Positions 1,524 through 34,142 of a DNA stretch of 64,000 nt are shown piece after piece (the stretch's first letter is position 1; every line of letters starts with the position of its first letter). The notes under the pieces were generated by a model. The model was not told the DNA's origin. It was given only the letters and a program-made list of their open reading frames with translations, and did not search any database. The translations under genes were made by a program, and so were the position numbers. The stretch is from Candidatus Rokuibacteriota bacterium. GTDB taxonomy: Bacteria > Methylomirabilota > Methylomirabilia > Rokubacteriales > CSP1-6. Location of the stretch: the NCBI GenBank assembly GCA_003220475.1, contig QHSO01000001.1, positions 4,346-68,345 on the forward strand, in the 5' to 3' direction.

Positions 1524-2057
1524 CTATTCCTGCCCGTTCAGCAGCAGCTTCACGATTGCCGGCACGATCTCGCGTGCGCGTCGGTCGAGCTCCGCATCGC
1601 TGAGATTGGCGATCGGATGCGGCATCGCCAGGAACTTGTAGGAGGTGAGCCCCCACTGCTCGGCCATCGCCCTGCCCGTCTTCTCGAACACGTCGGTCAC
1701 GATCGAGGCCGAGGGGATGCCGTGATGCTCCAGCAGAATTCCGTCGAGCACACTGCCCGACGAGCAGGACCCTCAGTCGCCGATCCCGGCGACCATGACG
1801 TCTGCGGATGTCTTGATCGCCGCGATGATCTCCTCGTGCGCCGGCACGCTGGCGTTGTGCTTGCGGTACATCGTCCATTCCGCGATGCCGTGCTCGGCCT
1901 TGAGGATCTGACCGATCCGCTCGAGCAGCTTGTCGGAGTTGAACTTCGTGTTCTCGATCAGCGCCACCCGCTTGCCCGCGAGCGAGCCCGGCCGCGGCGA
2001 GTACTCGATCGGCCGCGGCGACGCGGGCGTGGTGGGATCCAGGATCTCGATGCTCAT
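1524..2057 (-). CDS. UGSC-motif selenoprotein (Sec encoded by in-frame TGA at 1773-1775), function unknown
   Basis: Track ORFs 1773..2120 and 1524..1751 are in the same frame, separated only by TGA 1773-1775 plus 7 sense codons (GSCSSGS). Joined product reads ...VMVAGIGD-U-GSCSSGSVLDGILLEHHGIPS... and aligns along its length with the N-terminal domain of the 6653..8227 product. Start ATG 2055-2057 (M22 of track ORF) overlaps the partner gene stop 2054-2056. AGGAG sits 8 nt upstream. Confidence 0.75.
1743..1761 (-). promoter_or_regulatory. SECIS-like hairpin 12 nt downstream of UGA (GUCGGGCA-GUG-UGCUCGAC)
   Basis: mRNA reads UGA GGGUCCUGCUC then an 8-bp stem-loop starting GUCG and ending CGAC, with G-U in the apical loop. 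Same spacing and stem ends as the element at 7925..7943. Confidence 0.5.
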
Positions 2058-3034
2058 CGCTTGATCTCCTTCGTAATGGCTGCGGAGGACTTCGCGCTCG
2101 ACCAGCCCGGGATGAAGCACGAGAACGCGCCGGCGCGGCCGCCGGCGGCCACGACGAGGATGTCGTCGGGCGCGGCCACGAGCGGGCGCATCCTGCTCTC
2201 GTCACCCGCCTCCGGCGCGCCCGCCATGCGCTGCGTCCGCTTGAGGTGCGCGTGCGCATTCTGCGTGTGCTCCCAGACGAACTGCCGGATCCGCTTCTTG
2301 TCCCAACCGTCGGCGGCGATCGTCTTCATGTGCTCGCCCGCGAGCACGAGACAGTAGTGCGGCTGCCCCATCACGTTGCCGGAGATGCGCATGCTGTCCG
2401 CCAGCGTGATGAGGACACCCTCGGCCGTGCTCGAGAGCTGGTTGTAGAACTGGTGCGGGCCTTCCGCCGCCATCACGGTGACCGTCGACTGCTCGGGCCG
2501 AAAGCCGCGCTCGACGTGCAGCGGCGTCCACGGGCTCTCCGCCTCGTTCTCGGCGATCACGTACGAGAGCTTGCCGGGATGGCCGACGGTGCCGCGGTCG
2601 AGCAGGCCGGGCATCGAGCCGCACACGTTGCGCATGACCAGGCGCACCGCGCGCCCGATCGTGAGATTCGCGCGCCAGCCGGGACCGAAGAGGTTGTCGC
2701 CCGCGTTGATGTCGAGCTCACGCGCGATCGGTCCGTTGACGATCATCAGCACGGCCGCGCCGGCGGTCGACGTGCCCGGGCCGTGATAACTCCAGCCCTC
2801 GTCGCCGATCCCCTCGACTGCGGCCACCACGACCGGCATGTACTCCGGCTTGCAGCCCGCCATCACCGCGTTGATCGCGACTTTCTCGGCCGTGACCGTC
2901 ACGAACCGATCGCGGATATAGGCGAGCTTGGCATCCGGCGCGAGCCGGACCGCGTCCAGCATGGCGCGCACCGCCGACTCGGTGGGCGGGACGACCGGCA
3001 GTCCGTCGCTCCAGCCTCCCTGGTGCCTGCCCAA
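2054..3034 (-). CDS. conserved hypothetical protein, partner domain of the UGSC selenoprotein (DUF-like)
   Basis: 326 aa. About 55-60% identical to the C-terminal 325 aa of the 6653..8227 product (GWSDGLPVVPPTE, NGPIAxxLxxxxGxNxxGxGxRANxxIGRAxRLV, GHPGKxxYxxAENEAxSPWxPLHVERGF). Stop TGA overlaps the UGSC gene ATG (ATGA). Confidence 0.75.
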   Translation of the reverse strand: MGRHQGGWSDGLPVVPPTESAVRAMLDAVRLAPDAKLAYIRDRFVTVTAEKVAINAVMAGCKPEYMPVVVAAVEGIGDEGWSYHGPGTSTAGAAVLMIVNGPIARELDINAGDNLFGPGWRANLTIGRAVRLVMRNVCGSMPGLLDRGTVGHPGKLSYVIAENEAESPWTPLHVERGFRPEQSTVTVMAAEGPHQFYNQLSSTAEGVLITLADSMRISGNVMGQPHYCLVLAGEHMKTIAADGWDKKRIRQFVWEHTQNAHAHLKRTQRMAGAPEAGDESRMRPLVAAPDDILVVAAGGRAGAFSCFIPGWSSAKSSAAITKEIKR

Positions 3035-3160
3035 ACAGGCGACGCCACGCTACCACCCGCCGCCGCGTCGCCGCAACCGCGCGCCTTGACCGGTGCGGCG
3101 CAGGTGTCGCATACTGCGCGGACTCTCGAACTCAGCCGCCACTGAAGAACGGAGACGCGA

Positions 3161-6100
3161 GTGCGGTGTGCCCGGTGCCAGCACGACAACGCGCCCGGGG
3201 CCAAATTCTGCATGGAGTGTGGCGCGCGCCTGGGCTCGATCGCCGACGCGCCCCGAACCGAGTCGCCTGAGGCCTACACCCCCGCGCACCTCGCCAGCAA
3301 GATCCTGAGCGCGCGCGAAACGCTGGCCGGGGAGCGCAAGCAGGTCACCGTGCTGTTCGCAGATCTCAAGGGCTCGCTCGAGCTTCTCGCCGACCGCGAT
3401 CCCGAGGACGCGCGCGCCCTGCTCGACGCGGTGCTGGAGCGGATGATGGAGGCGGTGCACCGGTACGAGGGCACGGTCAACCAGGTCATGGGCGACGGCA
3501 TCATGGCCCTCTTCGGCGCGCCGGTCGCCCGCGAGGACCACGCGGTGCGCGCGTGCTACGCGGCGCTGCGCATGCACCGCGCCATCGCCCACGACGCGGA
3601 CGACGTGCGTCGGCGGCTCGGCGTCGACGTGCAGATCCGCGTCGGCCTGAACTCGGGCGAGGTGGTCGTCCGCTCGATCGGCAGCGATCTCCGAATGGAC
3701 TACAGCGCCGTCGGCCAGACGACCCACCTCGCGGCGCGGATGGAGCAGCTCACGCGTCCCGGCACCACGCTGATCACCGCGGCCACGCACCGCCTCGCGG
3801 CGCGCTTCATCGACGCCGCGCCGCAGGGGCCGATGCCGGTGAAGGGCCTGCGCGATCCCGTCGAGGTGTGGGAGCTCAAGCGGGCGACGCCGGTCACGTC
3901 GAGCCTCGGCGCCGTCGCCGGACGTGCGCAGACGGCGATGCTCGGCCGCGCCGCGGAGATGGCGACGCTGGCCCGGCTGCTGGCGCGCGCCCGCGAGGGC
4001 CGCGGGCAGCTCGTCACGCTGGTGGGCGAGCCGGGCGTCGGCAAGTCGCGTCTCGTCTGGGAACTCTCGCGCGGGGCCGCTGCCGACGGCTGGCAGATGC
4101 ACGAGGCGGCGTGCGTCTCCTACGGCATGCTCACGCCCTATCTGCCCCTCCGAAATCTGCTGACGAGGTACTTCGACGTCGAGGACGGCGACGACGCGCG
4201 GCGCATCCGCGAAAAGGTGGCGACGCGGATGGTGGCGCTCGACACACGACTCGCCGGCGGCGTCTCGGCGATCCTGGCGCTCGGCAACGTCCCCAACGAC
4301 GACGCCGAGTGGGACGCGCTCGCGCCCACCATGCGACGCCAGCGGATCCTCAAGGCCGTGCGCGAGCTGCTGCTGGCCGAAAGCCGTCGCGCGCCGTTGC
4401 TCCTCGTGGTCGAGAGTCTGGAGTGGGCGGACTCGGAGACGCACGCGCTCGTCGAAGATCTCGCCGCAGGGCTCGCCGAGGCGCGCATGCTCGTGGTCGT
4501 GACGGCGCGGCCCGAGCGCCGGCGCGACTGGTCGAGCACCGGTGACACGACGGAGATCCGGCTCGATCCGCTGGGCGCGGCCAGCGCCGCGGCGCTGGCC
4601 GACGCGATCCTCGGGCCCGCCGACGAGCTGGCGGCGCTCAAGCGACGGCTCGTCGCGCACACCGCGGGCAACGCGTTTTTCATGGAGGAGATCGTGCAGG
4701 CACTCGTCGAGACGCACGCGCTCGCCGGTGAGCGCGGGCAGTATCGCCTCGGCAGACTCGTGGAGGGCCTGCAGATCCCCGATCGCGTGCAGGCCGTGCT
4801 GGCCGCGCGCATCGACCGACTGTCTGGCGAGAGCAAGGCGGTCTTGCAGGCCGGCGCGGCCATCGGCGTCGATGTGCCGGTGGCGCTGTTGCAGGCGGTG
4901 GCCAACGCCTCGTCCGAGGAGGTGCTGCACGCGCTCGCGGAGCTCGAGGCCGCCGACTTCGTGCGGCCGAGCGCGCTGGTGCCCGATCTCGCCTACTCGT
5001 TCAAGCACGCGATCACCCAGGAGGTCGCCTACGCCACGCTGCTGAAAGAGCAGCGCCGCGCGCTGCACGCGCGCATCGTCGCGGCGCTCGAGGCCAGCTA
5101 TCCCGGCGAGCGCCGCGCCGAGCACGTCGAGCGGCTCGCCTACCATGCGCTGCGGGCGGAGGCCTGGCCCACCGCCGTCGGCTATCTGCGCGACGCGGGC
5201 GAGCGCGCGGTGGCGCGCTCGGCCAATCGTGAGGCCGCCGCCTTCTACGAGGACGCGCTGCGCGCGCTGGCGCATCTGCCGGAGAGCCGCGACACGTTCG
5301 CGCTCGCCATCGATCTGCGCCTCGATCTGCGCGTGCCGTTGCTGCAGCTCGGCCGGCTCGACGATCTCCACCGGCTGTCGAAAGAAGCCGAGAGCATGGC
5401 GCAGCACGTCGGCGACGAGGAGCGGCTGGCGCGCGCGTACTCGTATCTCGTGAACTACCACTATCTGCTCGGCGAGCCGGCGCGCGCCGACGAATACGGT
5501 GCACGCTGCCTCGCGATCGCCGGGCGGCGTCGCGATCCCGAGCTGGCGATGCTCGCCCGACGCTACCTCGGCCACAGTCACCACGCGCAGGGCCGGCACC
5601 GCATGGCCATCGAGGTCCTCGACGACAATCTCAGTGCGCTGGTCGCGGAGACCGCGGGCAGCATGGCGGTGGCCCGCACGACGGCCTACGTGGCGTCGGC
5701 GACCTGGCTCGCGTGGGCGCTGGCCGATCTCGGCGAGTTCGAGCGGGCCGATGCGTACCTCGACCGGGCGCGGGCGCAGTCGGATCTCGCGCGGCACCCG
5801 TACAGCCAGGCGATCGCGTGGACGCTCACCGGCGCCGTCTGGTACACGCGCGGTCAGCTCGATCGCGCGATGCCGACGCTGGCGCGCGGCCTCGAGATCT
5901 GCCGAGACGCGAACCTCACCGTGTGGCAGCCGATTCCGACCACGCTGCTCGGCGCGTGCCTGCTCGCGCTCGATCGCAAGGACGACGGTCTGGCGCTGCT
6001 CCGCGATGGCGTCCGCCGCGCCGAGTCGCTCGGCGTCATGGCCTATCTCTCACGCTGGACGCTGCAGCTCGCCGAGGGCCTGCTGGTCACCGGCGACGTC

Positions 6101-6649
6101 GCCGGCGCGCGGGTCACCGCCGATCGCGCGATGGCACTGGCCCTGACGCATGGCGAGCGCGCGCACGAGGCGATGGCGTGGCGCGTGCTCGGCGACGTCG
6201 CGGTGCGGGAACGCGAACTGGAGGCAGCGCGCCAGGCGTACGAGCAGGCGCTGCTGCTGGGCGAAGAGCTGGGGCTGCGCCCGCAGGTCGCGCGCGCCCA
6301 CTTCGACCTCGGCCGACTGGAGCGCCGTCTCGGCCATCTCGACGACGCCGAGGATCACCTCGCGCGCGCGGTCGTGCTCTTCGCCGAGATGGGCATGCGC
6401 GGCTGGCTCGAGCGGTCGCAGCCGGAGCTCAAGGCGCTCGGTCATCTGGTGATCGTGGCGCGCTCGAACATGAACCTCTTCGACTATCTGACGGAAAAGT
6501 TCGCCGGCGACCCCGACGTCAGCGTGATCCTCGATCGGCGCCAGGACGCGCCCATGCGCACGGCCGCGATGGGAACCGCCGAGCGGCGCCATCACACGAC
6601 GGACCAGGCCCTGCGCACGCGCGGACTGGCCGTCGTCGTCCCCGAGTAA
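3161..6649 (+). CDS. adenylate/guanylate cyclase (CHD) - AAA/STAND ATPase - TPR signalling protein with N-terminal double zinc ribbon
   Basis: 1162 aa. N-terminus CARCQHDNAPGAKFCMECG zinc ribbon. Class III cyclase domain (VTVLFADLKGS...GDGIMALFGAP). Walker A GEPGVGKS. Long TPR-like C-terminal region. Confidence 0.85.
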   Translation: MRCARCQHDNAPGAKFCMECGARLGSIADAPRTESPEAYTPAHLASKILSARETLAGERKQVTVLFADLKGSLELLADRDPEDARALLDAVLERMMEAVHRYEGTVNQVMGDGIMALFGAPVAREDHAVRACYAALRMHRAIAHDADDVRRRLGVDVQIRVGLNSGEVVVRSIGSDLRMDYSAVGQTTHLAARMEQLTRPGTTLITAATHRLAARFIDAAPQGPMPVKGLRDPVEVWELKRATPVTSSLGAVAGRAQTAMLGRAAEMATLARLLARAREGRGQLVTLVGEPGVGKSRLVWELSRGAAADGWQMHEAACVSYGMLTPYLPLRNLLTRYFDVEDGDDARRIREKVATRMVALDTRLAGGVSAILALGNVPNDDAEWDALAPTMRRQRILKAVRELLLAESRRAPLLLVVESLEWADSETHALVEDLAAGLAEARMLVVVTARPERRRDWSSTGDTTEIRLDPLGAASAAALADAILGPADELAALKRRLVAHTAGNAFFMEEIVQALVETHALAGERGQYRLGRLVEGLQIPDRVQAVLAARIDRLSGESKAVLQAGAAIGVDVPVALLQAVANASSEEVLHALAELEAADFVRPSALVPDLAYSFKHAITQEVAYATLLKEQRRALHARIVAALEASYPGERRAEHVERLAYHALRAEAWPTAVGYLRDAGERAVARSANREAAAFYEDALRALAHLPESRDTFALAIDLRLDLRVPLLQLGRLDDLHRLSKEAESMAQHVGDEERLARAYSYLVNYHYLLGEPARADEYGARCLAIAGRRRDPELAMLARRYLGHSHHAQGRHRMAIEVLDDNLSALVAETAGSMAVARTTAYVASATWLAWALADLGEFERADAYLDRARAQSDLARHPYSQAIAWTLTGAVWYTRGQLDRAMPTLARGLEICRDANLTVWQPIPTTLLGACLLALDRKDDGLALLRDGVRRAESLGVMAYLSRWTLQLAEGLLVTGDVAGARVTADRAMALALTHGERAHEAMAWRVLGDVAVRERELEAARQAYEQALLLGEELGLRPQVARAHFDLGRLERRLGHLDDAEDHLARAVVLFAEMGMRGWLERSQPELKALGHLVIVARSNMNLFDYLTEKFAGDPDVSVILDRRQDAPMRTAAMGTAERRHHTTDQALRTRGLAVVVPE

Positions 6650-6652
6650 CGC

Positions 6653-8227
6653 TCAGGCCTCGATCCGCTCCGTCACCGAGCGCGTGGCGCCGAACGTCGG
6701 CACGATGGCCGAGTGCTTGCCCGGACCGCCCGCGACGATCACCATCACGTCCTCGGGCTTCGACGCGAACGGCAGCAGCGTGTCGGGGCCCGCGTTCTCG
6801 AACCGCTCGGGATGCGTGAGCTTGAAGCGCGCGATGTTGTCCGCCGAGAACTTCGCCATCGGCACGCGCGCGGCGTCCCAGAAGCGGCTCTGGAAGTCCT
6901 GCTTCGACCAGCCCGACGAGGCGAGCGTCTGCGCGTGCTCGGGGCCGAGGATCACGAGCGGATCGCCAGCCAGATAGATGTTGTTGCTGCCGGTGGTCGC
7001 CGCCGTGCCGGCGAGCGCGGCCATCAGCGTCTCGCCCGTCGTCGAGCCGTGGTCGTTGACGTTGTGGGGAGGCTCGGAGCCGCACACGGTCACCGTGCTG
7101 TCCTCGCGCGCGAAGCCGCGCTCCACGTGCAGCGGCTCCCACGGCGACTGCGCCTCGTTCTCGGCCAGGCAGTACGTGAACTTCCCCGGATGCCCGAGCG
7201 TCGCGCGGTCCTCTCGGCCCGGGCGCGCGCCGCCGACGTTCTGCAGCACCAGTCGCAGCGCGCGGCCGATGACCGCGTTGGCGCGATGGCCGTTGCCGAG
7301 CGCGTTCGGTCCGCCCGCCACGCCGAGCCGCGCCGCGATGGGACCGTTGACGATGACGAGCGGCGAGCACGGATGCGTCGTGCACTGGATCGCGTTGAGG
7401 TTGAACTGCGGCGTGGCCACGGCGCGCACGGCGGCGATGATCACCGGCAGGTGCTCGGGGCCCGCGCCCGCCAGCGCGGCGTTGACGGCGATCGCGTGCA
7501 GCGTCGCGCGACCGTCGAGCGGCATGAGCGTCGAGGCCAGTTCCTCGCCTGCGCGACGGCCGAGGATCTTCGCCACCCGCGCTTCGGTCGGCGGCAGCAC
7601 GGGCAGCCCGTCCGACCACTCCTGCTCCATCGCCCACAGCTGGAACGCGTCGAGATCCTCCGGCGCCTCCACGAGGGTCGGACGGGCCGCCGCCGTGGTC
7701 GCGGGCGGGGTGGGATCCGACGTCAGGCCGCGCAGAACCTCATCGAGGATCGCGTCGGCTTTCGCGCGCGCCGTGTCGGTGGGGATGCCGCCGAGCGGAT
7801 GCGGCACGAGCGCCACCGGCATGTGCGGCAGTCCATGTTTCGCGGACGTCGCCCTCGCGAGCGAGAGAAACGCGTCGGTGCCGAGCACGACGGACGGGAC
7901 GCCCCGCCCTTCCAGCTGCGCCGCGTCGTGGATACTCCACGACGTGCAGGACCCTCAGTCGGCGCTCCCGGTCAGCACGACGTCAGCACCCTTCGCGATG
8001 TCGTCGAGGATCTCGGCCGGCCGCGCCGCACTGGGCTTGCTCCAGCCGCGCACGCCCGCCGCGCCCGTGCGCGCGGCGAGCAGCTCGGCGACCCGATGCA
8101 GGAGCGCGCCGGCGTTCGGCTTGGAATTGTCGAGGACGCCGATGGTGAGACCGGCCAGGCTCGGCTTGCGCGGCGCGAGCCGCCCGATCTTCGCCTGGCC
8201 GCCTGAGAACGGGCTCCAGAGTTTCAT
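6653..8227 (-). CDS. fused UGSC-motif selenoprotein + partner domain (Sec encoded by in-frame TGA at 7955-7957)
   Basis: Track ORF 6653..7888 and the last 90 codons of ORF 7955..9592 share a frame, interrupted only by TGA 7955-7957. Product reads MKLWSPF...VVLTGSAD-U-GSCTSWS...EWSDGLPVLPPTE... About 524 aa. ATG 8225-8227 overlaps the MFS gene stop 8224-8226 (ATGA). Confidence 0.75.
7925..7943 (-). promoter_or_regulatory. SECIS-like hairpin 12 nt downstream of UGA (GUCGUGG-AGUAU-CCACGAC)
   Basis: mRNA reads UGA GGGUCCUGCAC followed by a perfect 7-bp stem with a 5-nt loop containing GU. The core GCAGGACCCTCAGTCG is identical to that at 1764-1779. Confidence 0.5.
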
Positions 8228-9399
8228 GGGCGTGGAGTATAGCGCCACGGAGCCGCGGCGGCGACGGTGGCGAGCACGACCGCAATCGCCGCGGCGAGGA
8301 ACGCCTCGCCGAACGCGGCGGGCAGTCCGACGATGTCGCGCCGCGCCGCGAACAGCCCGGCGAGGCCGAGCACTCCGGTGACGACGCCGAGCGTCCGCGC
8401 CAGGAACGCGAAGCCGCCCGCCATGCCCTGCTGCGCGCCGCCGAACGCGCCCATGATGAGCGCCATGTTGGGAACCTGAAACATGCCCAGACCGAATCCC
8501 GCCGCGAACAGCGCAACGGCGATCATGGGCATGCTCGTCGTCGCGTCCGCGCGGCTCAGCAGGAGCAGGCCGAGCGCCTCGAGCGCGAGCCCGCCGATCA
8601 TCGGGCCACGCGCGCCCAGGCGATCGGCGGCGACGCCGGCGACGGGCGCCGCCGCGGCCGTGCCGAGCGGCGTGAGCGTGAACAGCAGGCCCGCCGTAAG
8701 CGCGTCGAGCCCGCGCACGAGCACGAGATAGAACGGCGCGAGCAGCCAGACCGAGAAGATGGACGCATTCGCGAGGAACGCGAGGGCGCCCGGCGCGAGC
8801 ACGGCGCGACGCACGACGTCGGCGGCGGCCACGAGCCGTGTGGCGGCGCCGCGCGCCGCCGGCAGACCGGCGAGCGCCCAGCCGAACACGCCCAGCGCGA
8901 TCGGAACGCGGACATAGAAGGTAGAACGCCAGCCGAGGTGAGCCACGAGCAGCCCGGCGACGAGCGGCCCGACCGTGAAGCCGACGCCGATGCCCGCATT
9001 GAGGAAGCCGAGCGCGCGGCCCCGCGCCTGGGGCGGCGCGGCGAGCGTGACGATCCCCGGCGCCGTGCCGTAGACGAGGCCACCGCCGAGTCCTTGCAGC
9101 ACGCGCGCGCCCAGCAGCAGTCCAAACGTCGGCGCCAGCGCGCCGAGCGTGAGCGCCACGGCCGTGAGCAGCAGACCAACGCGGAACACGCGCGCGTGAC
9201 CCACACGGTCCGCGAGCGCGCCGCCCGAGAACGCGGTCAGCGCGTAGGTGAAGACGTAGCAGACGATCACCCAGCGCACGCGCTCCGGCGGCTCGGCGAA
9301 CGCCGCCGCCATGGCGGGAAACGCGACGTTGATGATCGAGTCGAGCGAGATGACGCCGGCGCCGGCCGCCGCGATCCAGCGGGTCACGGCTGGTATCAT
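8224..9399 (-). CDS. MFS transporter
   Basis: 391 aa with 12 predicted TM helices and typical MFS loop motifs (GALADRVGHAR, LQGLGGG). Its stop overlaps the start of the downstream selenoprotein gene. Confidence 0.85.
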   Translation of the reverse strand: MIPAVTRWIAAAGAGVISLDSIINVAFPAMAAAFAEPPERVRWVIVCYVFTYALTAFSGGALADRVGHARVFRVGLLLTAVALTLGALAPTFGLLLGARVLQGLGGGLVYGTAPGIVTLAAPPQARGRALGFLNAGIGVGFTVGPLVAGLLVAHLGWRSTFYVRVPIALGVFGWALAGLPAARGAATRLVAAADVVRRAVLAPGALAFLANASIFSVWLLAPFYLVLVRGLDALTAGLLFTLTPLGTAAAAPVAGVAADRLGARGPMIGGLALEALGLLLLSRADATTSMPMIAVALFAAGFGLGMFQVPNMALIMGAFGGAQQGMAGGFAFLARTLGVVTGVLGLAGLFAARRDIVGLPAAFGEAFLAAAIAVVLATVAAAAPWRYTPRP

Positions 9400-33503: not shown

Positions 33504-34142
33504 GTGATCGGTCCGTTCGCGAGCTCTCCGACGCCGCGGCGAGTCTACACCATCACGCTCACGCTCACGATCGCCCTCACGCTCCTCGGCCTCGGCTGCC
33601 ACGCGCCGGCGCCGGGGGCGGCCGACCGTCTCGTCGTCGAGACGCGGATGTCGAAGGGGCCGGCGACGGCGCCGGTGACGATCGTCGAGTTCTCGGATTA
33701 CCAGTGACCGTTCTGCCGACGCGTCCAGCGGTCGCTGGAGCAGATCCTCAGGGAGTACGATGGTCGGGTGCGTCTGGTCTACAAAGACTTCCCCCTGCCG
33801 TCCCACTCCCTGGCCATGCCCGCGCACGAGGCGGCGCGCTGCGCGGGCGATCAGGGCCGGTACTGGGCGTATCACGACGTGCTGTTCGAGCGTCAGCCGC
33901 GCTTCGAGCGTCAGGACCTCGTCGATTACGCGATCAACCTCAATCTCGACCGCGAGCGCTTCGAGCGCTGCCTGGATGGTCACCAGTACCGCGCCGCCGT
34001 CGAGGCGGATTTCGCGGAAGGCCGCGAGCTGGGTGTGCGCAGCACGCCGACGTTCCTCATCAACGGCAAGCCGCTCGTGGGCGCACAGCCCATCGAGAAT
34101 TTCCGCGCCGCCATCGACGAGGCGCTCCGGGTGCGCCGCTGA
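33504..34142 (+). CDS. DsbA-like thiol:disulfide oxidoreductase selenoprotein (U-P-F-C active site; Sec at TGA 33705-33707)
   Basis: Track ORFs 33393..33707 and 33768..34142 share a frame, separated by TGA plus 20 sense codons. Product reads ...VTIVEFSDYQ-U-PFCRRVQRSLEQILREYDGRVRLVYKDFPLPSHSLAMPAHEAARCAG..., i.e. the DsbA signature DYQCPFC with Sec at the first Cys. N-terminal signal or lipoprotein-like peptide. The start is uncertain (GTG 33486 or 33504) because the divergent DoxX gene occupies everything below 33485. Confidence 0.7.
33724..33739 (+). promoter_or_regulatory. candidate SECIS hairpin 16 nt downstream of UGA (UCCAGC-GGUC-GCUGGA)
   Basis: 6-bp stem with a GGUC loop, read directly from the sequence. 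Confidence 0.35.

Follow-up and report, generated by a model that had tools for sequence, protein, structure and literature searches.

A gene on the minus strand of the 64-kb stretch of DNA analysed here (the window) is best explained as encoding a two-domain selenoenzyme, in which a UGSC selenoprotein domain is fused to a partner domain of an unnamed family. We judge this explanation, including the redox cycle proposed below, to be moderately probable. The partner domain accompanies UGSC in other genomes, which suggests that the two modules form one redox enzyme.

Structure of the fused gene

The fused gene is read in a single frame from the ATG at 8227..8225 through 90 sense codons, the TGA at 7957..7955 and a further 22 sense codons to the GTG of ORF 6653..7888, and ends at the stop TGA 6655..6653 (Table 1). 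GC3 is 0.93 on the 3' side of the in-frame TGA, so the frame is coding there. This minus-strand reading agrees throughout with the preliminary description, which had proposed an in-frame fusion through the TGA with a product of about 524 aa. The overlap of the start codon with the stop of an MFS transporter gene, also claimed there, is read at 8227..8224, the MFS stop (TGA 8226..8224) sharing the four nucleotides ATGA with the ATG of the fused gene. The order of the parts needs amending: it had been given as UGSC domain, then U, then partner, whereas U is residue 91 and lies in the middle of the UGSC domain (residues 15–169), not between the domains.

The window holds the same two modules at a second locus, copy 1, where they are separate genes in the opposite order. 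The partner gene comes first, and the ATG of the UGSC gene lies over the partner stop in an ATGA overlap at 2057..2054. Pairwise alignment bears out the kinship proposed for the two loci: the UGSC parts are 35% identical (E 6e-26) and the partner parts 38% identical over 332 residues (E 8e-69), a match far beyond chance. The copy 1 UGSC protein carries the motif GD-U-GSC and scores 197.4 bits against Pfam PF24696 and 145 bits against NCBIfam NF041046.

Table 1. Features of the fused locus and of copy 1, in window coordinates
Feature	Position	Strand	Remarks
MFS transporter gene, 391 aa	8224..9399	-	Pfam MFS_1 PF07690, E 1e-46
Fused selenoprotein gene	6653..8227	-	524 codons including Sec at codon 91, plus TGA stop
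UGSC domain, residues 15–169	7721..8185	-	Pfam PF24696, E 6e-48; model spans the TGA
In-frame TGA, read as selenocysteine codon 91	7955..7957	-	Aligned column TGA/Cys
SECIS-like hairpin, 8–9-bp stem, GUA loop	7924..7944	-	10–11 nt spacer after UGA; predicted fold
Pro/Ala/Thr-rich interdomain linker, about residues 170–186	7670..7720	-	Sequence; low-pLDDT segment in homologue model
Partner domain, about residues 187–524	6656..7669	-	Unnamed family
Copy 1 partner gene, 326 aa from TTG 3034 (start uncertain)	2054..3034	-	
Copy 1 UGSC selenoprotein gene, 177 codons	1524..2057	-	Sec TGA 1775..1773; SECIS-like hairpin 1763..1741

Selenocysteine decoding

Comparison across genomes predicts that the fused gene is a real selenocysteine-containing gene that reads through TGA 7957..7955. 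Among 80 genome loci, the Sec column holds TGA at 72 and Cys at four, one of them archaeal. The loci with TGA come from Proteobacteria, Chloroflexota, Methylomirabilota, Binatia, Actinobacteria and Bacilli, and Cys also replaces Sec in full-length database homologues of the fused protein. Natural Cys versions occur in the cultured strain Natrialba asiatica DSM 12278 (L082) and in a Sphingomonas MAG (L015), and Sec versions in Robertmurraya sp. 2P01SA and Vineibacter terrae. Protein-level conservation extends over the 22 codons that separate the TGA from GTG 7888. The fused gene itself stops at a TGA, showing that TGA has not been globally reassigned.

The predicted SECIS-like hairpin follows the UGA at a spacing of 11 nt, which is that of the E. 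coli minimal SECIS. In this sequence of 70% GC, single-hairpin MFE z-scores against shuffles did not reach significance; support for the putative SECIS is comparative. Across 65 distinct sites the hairpin corresponds to columns 15–33 after the UGA, with 96.3% of cells paired and with G23 and U24 of the apical loop invariant. Compensatory changes were found in six of the eight pairs, and the observed score was reached by none of 500 shuffles. This covariation, the TGA/Cys column and the extension of the Pfam domain across the TGA uphold the earlier claim of a read-through selenoprotein. No selA, selB, selD or tRNA-Sec was found within the 64-kb window (no tRNA and no Rfam match). The window also contains a third Sec-type TGA, at 33705, in a DsbA-like FSDYQ-U-PFC sequence (U-x-x-C).

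The UGSC domain and its relation to GrdB/PrdB

The N-terminal domain of the fused protein lies above both curated cutoffs for the UGSC family, scoring 163.7 bits against Pfam PF24696 (cutoff 25) and, barely above the cutoff of 125, 126.1 bits against NCBIfam NF041046. As in known members, it is accompanied by the U-G-S-C motif and a SECIS-like element. The motif, SAD-U-GSC, occupies residues 88–94, and Sec91-Gly-Ser-Cys94 opens a helix. The two-domain structure was modelled with AF2 on a natural Cys homologue (P0152, 44% identical; pTM 0.94), and the window's own partner domain was modelled separately. The UGSC domain is predicted to have a flavodoxin-like alpha/beta fold instead of the Trx-like fold proposed for it in 2008 (PMC2398784). 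A phmmer search of the PDB with UGSC returned a designed repeat protein as its sole match, a spurious low-complexity hit.

Profile–profile comparison (hhalign) aligned UGSC with GRDB (PF07355) at a probability of 80.9% (E 1.3e-5) over 91 columns, placing DCGSC on NCPVC; the reversed-template control gave 0.3%. This predicts a remote homology between UGSC and the region of GrdB/PrdB selenoprotein B that carries Sec, the U-x-x-C motifs aligning in register. The two share a strand, the U-x-x-C, a helix, 'LExxGIPTV' and a 'PLG' motif. The Pfam GRDB model gave no match at E≤0.01 in either UGSC protein of the window, and the UGSC HMM scored 8.8 bits against four GOS GrdB/PrdB reads, a value that is not meaningful alone.

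GrdB and PrdB, of the glycine/sarcosine/betaine and D-proline reductases, need a second catalytic subunit and a thioredoxin-type electron supply. UGSC resembles them in being paired with a second subunit and in its thioredoxin-type links. It differs in that the Pfam GRDB model misses it and only about 90 columns align, and in that its partner is unrelated to GRDB (hhalign probability 0.6%). Nor was a pyruvoyl subunit found: the Pfam PrdA/GrdE models matched none of 113 partner members, and no such gene was found in the neighbourhood. Moreover, whereas the hosts of GrdB/PrdB are Stickland fermenters, those of UGSC are mostly aerobic or soil/freshwater lineages.

Pairing of UGSC with the partner domain

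Pairing was counted in two independent samples, 80 genome loci gathered from the partner side and 80 metagenome loci from the UGSC side. UGSC was present at all 77 partner loci having upstream DNA. The partner lay on the same strand at 65 of the 80 metagenome UGSC loci, the 15 exceptions all being short-flanked, and no UGSC locus without it was found among those with at least 1.5 kb on both sides. The partner precedes UGSC at 38 metagenome loci and follows it at 20, and the two are fused at five. Partner–UGSC fusions of the reverse order were found elsewhere, such that each order is represented both among separate genes and among fusions. From these counts the pairing looks obligate. The preliminary description had drawn a Rosetta-stone inference of joint function from the two loci of the window; the co-occurrence of the two domains in other genomes, universal in both samples and seen in every order, supports it strongly.

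The partner domain comprises about 335 residues, with near-invariant D206, N249, R322, D340, C353, E356 and W363. Its family numbers approximately 6,100 clusters at 50% identity and has neither a Pfam nor an NCBIfam model, its fold is without a solved relative, and the source names of 10 representative proteins were all 'hypothetical protein' or unnamed. Searched against Pfam at E≤5, 113 members gave only UGSC matches, which came from fused members. About 91% of members have C255 and about 91% have C353, and at least one of the two is present in every member sampled. The fused protein has Ala at the near-invariant Cys255 and retains Cys287, which is present in 10 of 11 A255 variants; the copy 1 partner has the Cys255 equivalent and Val at the Cys353 position. 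Either partner cysteine can be lost, as one is in each copy of the window, unlike what a single fixed catalytic Cys would show. Fusions with a degenerate UGSC motif (neither U nor C) keep both cysteines, so the partner may function independently of the redox centre in UGSC.

Redox fusions and a proposed catalytic cycle

In other organisms the partner is fused to redox modules: Pyr_redox_2, which is thioredoxin-reductase-like (P0199), FeThRed_B, the ferredoxin:thioredoxin-reductase-beta domain (P0146 and P0217), and AhpC/TSA-like CxxC domains (P0214 and P0223). A Sec-UGSC gene directly precedes P0199 and P0146. A Trx-fold–partner fusion has no UGSC alongside, suggesting that UGSC and Trx-fold modules are interchangeable. 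In alphaproteobacterial loci the gene immediately upstream is TrxR-like, such neighbours occurring at only 5–9% of loci. These arrangements resemble Trx/TrxR/FTR relays fused to their clients, for example peroxiredoxins and methionine sulfoxide reductases, in having the same (U/C)-x-x-C at a helix N-terminus and a Cys-containing client, with a flavoprotein disulfide reductase or FTR-beta sometimes also fused to the partner. They depart from them in that the UGSC module, as modelled, is not a thioredoxin fold and the client domain is without known fold or activity.

We read the UGSC–partner pair as a probable selenol/thiol reductase, for which the following chemistry, electron flow and substrate class are proposed. 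A ribosome meeting the UGA at codon 91 would insert Sec, the SECIS 11 nt downstream recruiting SelB and Sec-tRNA(Sec). The partner domain would be the obligate second subunit, supplying the substrate-binding and catalytic part of the pair. In the first step the selenol would attack the partner-bound substrate, or an adduct or disulfide of a partner Cys; an Se–S bond would then form with Cys94, and would finally be re-reduced by a thioredoxin-reductase-like flavoprotein, an FTR-like Fe-S protein or thioredoxin. In other organisms, donors of these kinds adjoin the partner or are fused to it. A small organic acid, or a compound related to one, is the probable substrate, and would here be carried by the co-transcribed MFS protein.

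Gene neighbourhood and alternative explanations

The MFS gene had been described as a dedicated, co-translated transporter. The four-nucleotide overlap in the window stands, and relatives retain the transporter gene (90% and 70% identical), although a variable extra ORF separates it from the fused gene there. The notion of a dedicated transporter does not extend to the pair at large: no homologue of this MFS protein was detected by tblastn (E≤1e-8) at the 80 genome and 80 metagenome loci carrying the pair, a looser blastp search (E≤1e-6) adding a single distant relative, about 3.5 kb off, in L082. We therefore rejected the MFS protein as a general partner; its link to the pair is lineage-specific. 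TctC-type receptors hold the corresponding position in Betaproteobacteria. TctC adjoins the pair at 29 of 80 loci, and SDR, enoyl-CoA hydratase, CoA-transferase and MmgE/PrpD are further neighbours. The neighbourhoods are heterogeneous, so gene context defines no substrate.

These observations bear on efflux-coupled detoxification, in which a toxic oxyanion or electrophile would be reduced, as arsenate is by Trx-coupled ArsC, and the product exported by a drug:H+-antiporter-like MFS protein. This would be a variant of the redox reading in which the physiological role differs. The transporter's NCBIfam matches are exclusively of DHA2/efflux type, all below threshold and none reaching a subfamily cutoff; it is translationally coupled to the fused gene in the window and retained among close relatives, and another MFS gene adjoins a Trx-fold–partner fusion. 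The failure of tblastn (E≤1e-8) to detect a homologue of the transporter at the 160 other pair loci argues the other way, as do the uptake receptors and catabolic CoA-ester enzymes found there instead, and no metal or arsenic resistance genes lie nearby in the window. We consider detoxification unlikely.

A pure redox relay draws on the same fusions and adjacencies as the two-domain enzyme. UGSC would be a thioredoxin-like reductant of a regulatory or structural disulfide and the partner a sensor or binding protein, not an enzyme; the conserved partner cysteines and the ability of a Trx-fold domain to stand in for UGSC are consistent with this. Set against it, the near-invariant polar D206, N249, R322, D340 and E356, together with W363, are typical of an active site, and the partner occurs in catabolic gene clusters with no DNA-binding or signalling domain found by domain search. 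A relay is, to our minds, about as improbable as detoxification. A shared metal or Fe-S site, with Sec/Cys-x-x-Cys and the partner cysteines as interface ligands and Sec not acting as a redox nucleophile, appears more doubtful again. That the TGA truly terminates translation, or arose by sequencing error, leaving a 90-aa fragment and a separate 411-aa protein from GTG 7888, is scarcely credible, since the agreement of public gene calls, which all end there, and the lack of tRNA-Sec and sel genes in the window are outweighed by a Pfam domain that would be halved, protein-level conservation of the 22 codons beyond it, a column holding TGA at 72 of 80 loci and Cys at others, a covarying hairpin and the further U-x-x-C TGA of the DsbA-like gene.

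Significance for the UGSC family

UGSC was described as a selenoprotein family without known function (PMC1976440) and is still listed as uncharacterised in a 2026 review (PMC13188914), although in metagenomes from oceans and freshwater it belongs to the top five families of selenoproteins (PMC2398784). A 'UGSC/Unknown_1 fusion' was reported from GOS reads by Zhang & Gladyshev in 2008 (PMC2398784). Both the family and that fusion were thus published in 2007–2008, and the present locus adds another member. The 2008 fusion likewise joins UGSC to a conserved domain; we do not equate Unknown_1 with the partner domain, and the portion of the 2008 Dataset S1 consulted contains no DUGSC or GHPGK sequences. 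The obligate pairing, reverse-order fusions, redox-donor fusions and GrdB/PrdB relation were not found in the UGSC literature examined. All public entries examined are truncated at the TGA, a systematic annotation error across the family; the entry for the fused protein itself (P0001) is the 411-aa ORF that starts after it.

Three leads on the function of UGSC emerge: its pairing with the partner, the thioredoxin-system fusions of that partner and a distant kinship with GrdB/PrdB. We tentatively propose, as a possibility we would not yet favour outright, that UGSC and its partner constitute an obligate Sec-dependent reductase of an undescribed kind, two-component or fused, built on a GrdB/PrdB-like Sec module together with a catalytic subunit of a fold lacking any solved relative, and served by TrxR/FTR-like donors. 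The natural Cys and Sec versions named above are open to expression and assay. If the proposal is true, an abundant aquatic selenoprotein family, unsolved since 2005–2007, would gain a reaction class and a defined partner.

Layout and domains of the fused gene

The frame of the fused gene runs through 90 sense codons to TGA 7957..7955, then through 22 further sense codons to the GTG of ORF 6653..7888, and closes at TGA 6655..6653. It is a single frame throughout, and read-through yields a product of 524 residues. Minus-strand reading returned the same frame and ends, so the coordinates and codon counts of the preliminary description are correct. The window derives from a genome of Rokubacteria/Methylomirabilota type. 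GC3 downstream of the internal TGA is 0.93 in a window of 70% GC; this frame is therefore coding. The closest database entry, 'hypothetical protein DMD85_00185 [Candidatus Rokuibacteriota bacterium]', corresponds to the ORF of 411 aa beginning past the TGA.

Domain searches were run with Cys in place of the in-frame stop. The UGSC domain also matches NCBIfam NF041046, 'UGSC family (seleno)protein', with a score of 126 bits where the cutoff is 125. The selenocysteine, in the motif SAD-U-GSC, is residue 91 and hence falls in the middle of this domain, not between the two domains where it had been placed. The partner domain by itself has no Pfam or NCBIfam match, and 113 members of its family gave none at E<=5.

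Features of the window and domains of the fused protein
Feature	Position	Strand	Remarks
UGSC gene, copy 1	2057..1524	-	TGA 1775..1773; ATGA overlap with partner gene
Partner gene, copy 1	3034..2054	-	Upstream of UGSC gene
Zinc-ribbon / adenylate-guanylate cyclase / AAA_16 / TPR protein, 1,162 aa	3161..6649	+	Between the two UGSC-partner copies
Fused gene, copy 2	8227..6653	-	
UGSC domain of fused protein	residues 15-169	-	Pfam PF24696, E 6e-48
Linker of fused protein	residues 170-186	-	Pro/Ala/Thr-rich
Partner domain of fused protein	residues 187-524	-	C-terminal
MFS gene	9399..8224	-	Stop TGA 8226..8224
DsbA-like ORF	33540..34142	+	TGA 33705..33707 in FSDYQ-U-PFC (U-x-x-C); third candidate selenoprotein in window

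Copy 1 carries the modules as separate genes, partner then UGSC, the reverse of the order in the fused gene. Pairwise alignment confirmed that these are the same two modules, permuted, with 35% identity between the UGSC sequences (E 6e-26) and 38% between the partners (E 8e-69). Its 343-344-aa partner orthologues at L001-type and L003 loci, from relatives of the window, begin with ~17 residues (first helix) that are missing from the partner of copy 1. Within 3034..3160 the sole candidate start is TTG 3034, with an in-frame TAG 5 codons 5' of it; this is a tentative start, and the gene may not be intact.

Decoding of the in-frame TGA

The best 120 database proteins (68-100% identity) are all 384-429 aa long, and gene callers have halted at the same TGA in each. 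Genomes scanned with the profile of the family yielded 80 loci, spanning Beta-, Alpha-, Gamma- and Deltaproteobacteria, Chloroflexota, Methylomirabilota, Binatia and Actinobacteria, together with one Bacillaceae isolate and the archaeon Natrialba. These loci have TGA at the U position of the HMM in 72 cases and Cys in 4, with 3 cut by a contig end and 1 partial; full-length database homologues carry CGSC at the position.

An 8-9 bp hairpin lies 3' of 67 UGSC TGAs (columns 15-33), with a 3-nt loop in which G23 and U24 are invariant. Its cells are paired in 96.3% of cases, compensatory changes occur in 6 of 8 pairs, and its covariation score was reached by none of 500 column shuffles; slid registers pair in only 18-48%. 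The 11-nt spacer and GU loop agree with those of the E. coli minimal SECIS. The predicted decoding of the UGSC TGA as selenocysteine, as first proposed from the sequence, is well supported by this comparison of TGA loci, Cys homologues and the covarying hairpin.

The fused gene itself terminates on TGA; the genetic code has therefore not undergone a global reassignment. Neither sel genes nor tRNA-Sec were found within the 64-kb window. Use of selenocysteine by the organism is supported by the third Sec-type TGA, in the DsbA-like ORF, which shows coding-type GC3 on both flanks.

All public gene calls of the family (P0001-P0120, L001-L004, L085-L089) are split or shortened at the Sec codon. The fragments, of ~90 aa and 75-83 aa or beginning past the TGA, are all named 'hypothetical protein'.

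Pairing of UGSC with the partner

A profile built from the two window copies matched 6,099 clusters (50% identity, E<=1e-3), 1,871 of them at E<=1e-30. Among the top 150 matches the majority are stand-alone partners of ~340-370 aa. The others are UGSC(C-terminal half)-partner proteins of 405-450 aa, which are Sec forms shortened by annotation; full-length UGSC-partner proteins with CGSC or degenerate motifs; partner-UGSC proteins, fused in the opposite order and ending exactly one residue short of U; and tandem partner-partner proteins.

From the partner side, UGSC is fused or adjacent in all 77 loci with upstream DNA (of 80 genome loci). The UGSC side was sampled independently of the partner, by scanning metagenome contigs with a DNA pattern of Sec site plus hairpin, and all 80 resulting loci fall within UGSC domains. 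A same-strand partner is present in 65 of these, in 64 at ~250-830 nt from the TGA. The 15 loci that lack one all have a flank shorter than 1.5 kb on one side and therefore offer no counter-example. Separate genes in the order partner then UGSC account for 38 metagenome loci, separate UGSC then partner for 20 and the UGSC-partner fusion for 5; copy 1 is thus the commonest arrangement and copy 2 a minority fused form. Pairing from both sides, in several arrangements, strongly supports the Rosetta-stone proposal that the two modules work together.

The tandem partner-partner fusions (P0122, P0137, P0150, P0194 and P0250) are ~710 aa long. One such locus, L091, has no UGSC in the DNA searched and an SBP_bac_5 solute-binding protein gene directly upstream. 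A Chloroflexi locus (L025, MAG JACPQD010000044.1) has three same-strand UGSC Sec sites within 4 kb (6229, 8298 and 9992), which suggests that the system has been amplified in tandem here, possibly in the form of fused paralogues; further copies lie on other contigs of the same MAG (L044, L051, L052).

Genomic context

The whole block is kept in relatives L001 (90% identity) and L003 (70% identity). In order, it comprises a branched-chain-type ABC transporter, NUDIX, two MaoC-like dehydratases, an FlK-type thioesterase (found in L001 but not in L003), MFS, the fused gene, the cyclase-AAA-TPR gene in opposite orientation, partner then UGSC, an alpha/beta hydrolase and a TPR protein. The cyclase-AAA-TPR gene (3161..6649), syntenic at 90% and 70% identity, could encode a regulator of both UGSC-partner operons.

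The proposal of a dedicated, co-translated MFS transporter is not supported as it was put. On sequence reading the ATG of the fused gene (8227..8225, -) does overlap the MFS stop as ATGA, but the transporter link was overstated, and a dedicated MFS is no general feature: tblastn (E<=1e-8) found no homologue of the window MFS in any of 160 loci (80 genome, 80 metagenome), and looser blastp gave a single distant relative, ~3.5 kb away in Natrialba (L082). In L001 (7174..7680) the interval between MFS and fused gene holds an ORF for a predicted membrane protein of 168 aa, and in L003 (3525..3920) it holds one for an ankyrin-repeat protein of 131 aa. The window has no such variable ORF at the junction (8224..8227), and the direct ATGA coupling is therefore lineage-specific. 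Just 8 bp separate the MFS ATG 9399 (-) from the divergent thioesterase ATG 9408 (+). The same gap is 71 bp in L001, where MFS is 8 residues shorter; translation of the window MFS may therefore begin further downstream.

TctC receptors recur near the pair (29/80 genome loci, mostly Betaproteobacteria), as do SDRs, enoyl-CoA hydratases, family III CoA-transferases, MmgE/PrpD and DUF6282. The pair may plausibly be linked to the uptake or export and the catabolism of small organic acids.

Structure and proposed role

With AF2 we modelled P0152, a natural full-length homologue that has Cys and shares 44% identity with the window protein. Its pLDDT of 95.3 and pTM of 0.94 imply a defined interdomain arrangement, and the U/C-x-x-C motif follows a beta-strand at the start of a helix. 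Foldseek gave only flavodoxin-type matches, all at E>1e-3, which leaves the Trx-like fold suggested for UGSC in 2008 unsupported. In profile-profile comparison UGSC matched GRDB (PF07355), the glycine/sarcosine/betaine/D-proline reductase selenoprotein B family, over 91 columns (probability 81%, E 1.3e-5), with U-x-x-C, 'LExxGIPTV' and the 'PLG' motif in register. Controls scored 0.3% (reversed template) and 0.6% (partner against GRDB).

In P0199 the partner is fused to a thioredoxin-reductase-like flavoprotein domain, and in P0146 to the beta chain (catalytic) of ferredoxin:thioredoxin reductase (FTR); a Sec-UGSC gene directly precedes both. P0217 has the layout UGSC-partner-FTR-beta, and in P0214 and P0223 the partner is joined to AhpC/TSA-type CxxC domains. 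The Trx-fold-partner fusion has no adjoining UGSC, which suggests that UGSC and a CxxC module of Trx fold can replace each other. In alphaproteobacterial loci a TrxR-like gene lies directly upstream; overall it occurs in 7/80 genome and 4/80 metagenome loci.

Within the partner, cysteines 255 and 353 (window numbering) are near-invariant, with each found in ~91% of members; R322 is invariant, and D206, N249, D340, E356 and W363 are near-invariant. Every sampled member keeps at least one of the two cysteines; in the window, the fused copy carries Ala255 and copy 1 carries Val353. Cys287 occurs in 10 of 11 Ala255 variants against 17 of 115 other sequences; the sequences compared are not phylogenetically independent.

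Combining redox fusions, neighbours, conserved residues and the GRDB relation, the most economical reading is that UGSC and partner form a selenol/thiol reductase, whose chemistry and substrate we infer. UGSC would be a GrdB/PrdB-like Sec module, the partner would be the catalytic, substrate-binding subunit, and electrons would come from a thioredoxin-type system.

A UGSC-containing protein was described in 2007 as a selenoprotein of unknown function (PMC1976440); a 'UGSC/Unknown_1' fusion was later noted and a Trx-like fold guessed (PMC2398784), and reviews of 2022 and 2026 still list UGSC without a function (PMC9312934, PMC13188914). The window genes are new members of this known family, and their fusion very probably belongs to the known type; the preliminary reading of a fused selenoprotein with functionally coupled modules was right. 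In the published UGSC papers and reviews examined we found no mention of obligate pairing with the partner, both fusion orders, redox-donor fusions of the partner, a flavodoxin-like fold of UGSC, remote GrdB/PrdB homology or the partner's lack of any fold relative. The fused gene itself would not surprise a selenoprotein specialist. The analysis gives the UGSC family, long of 'unknown function', a testable two-subunit reductase hypothesis.
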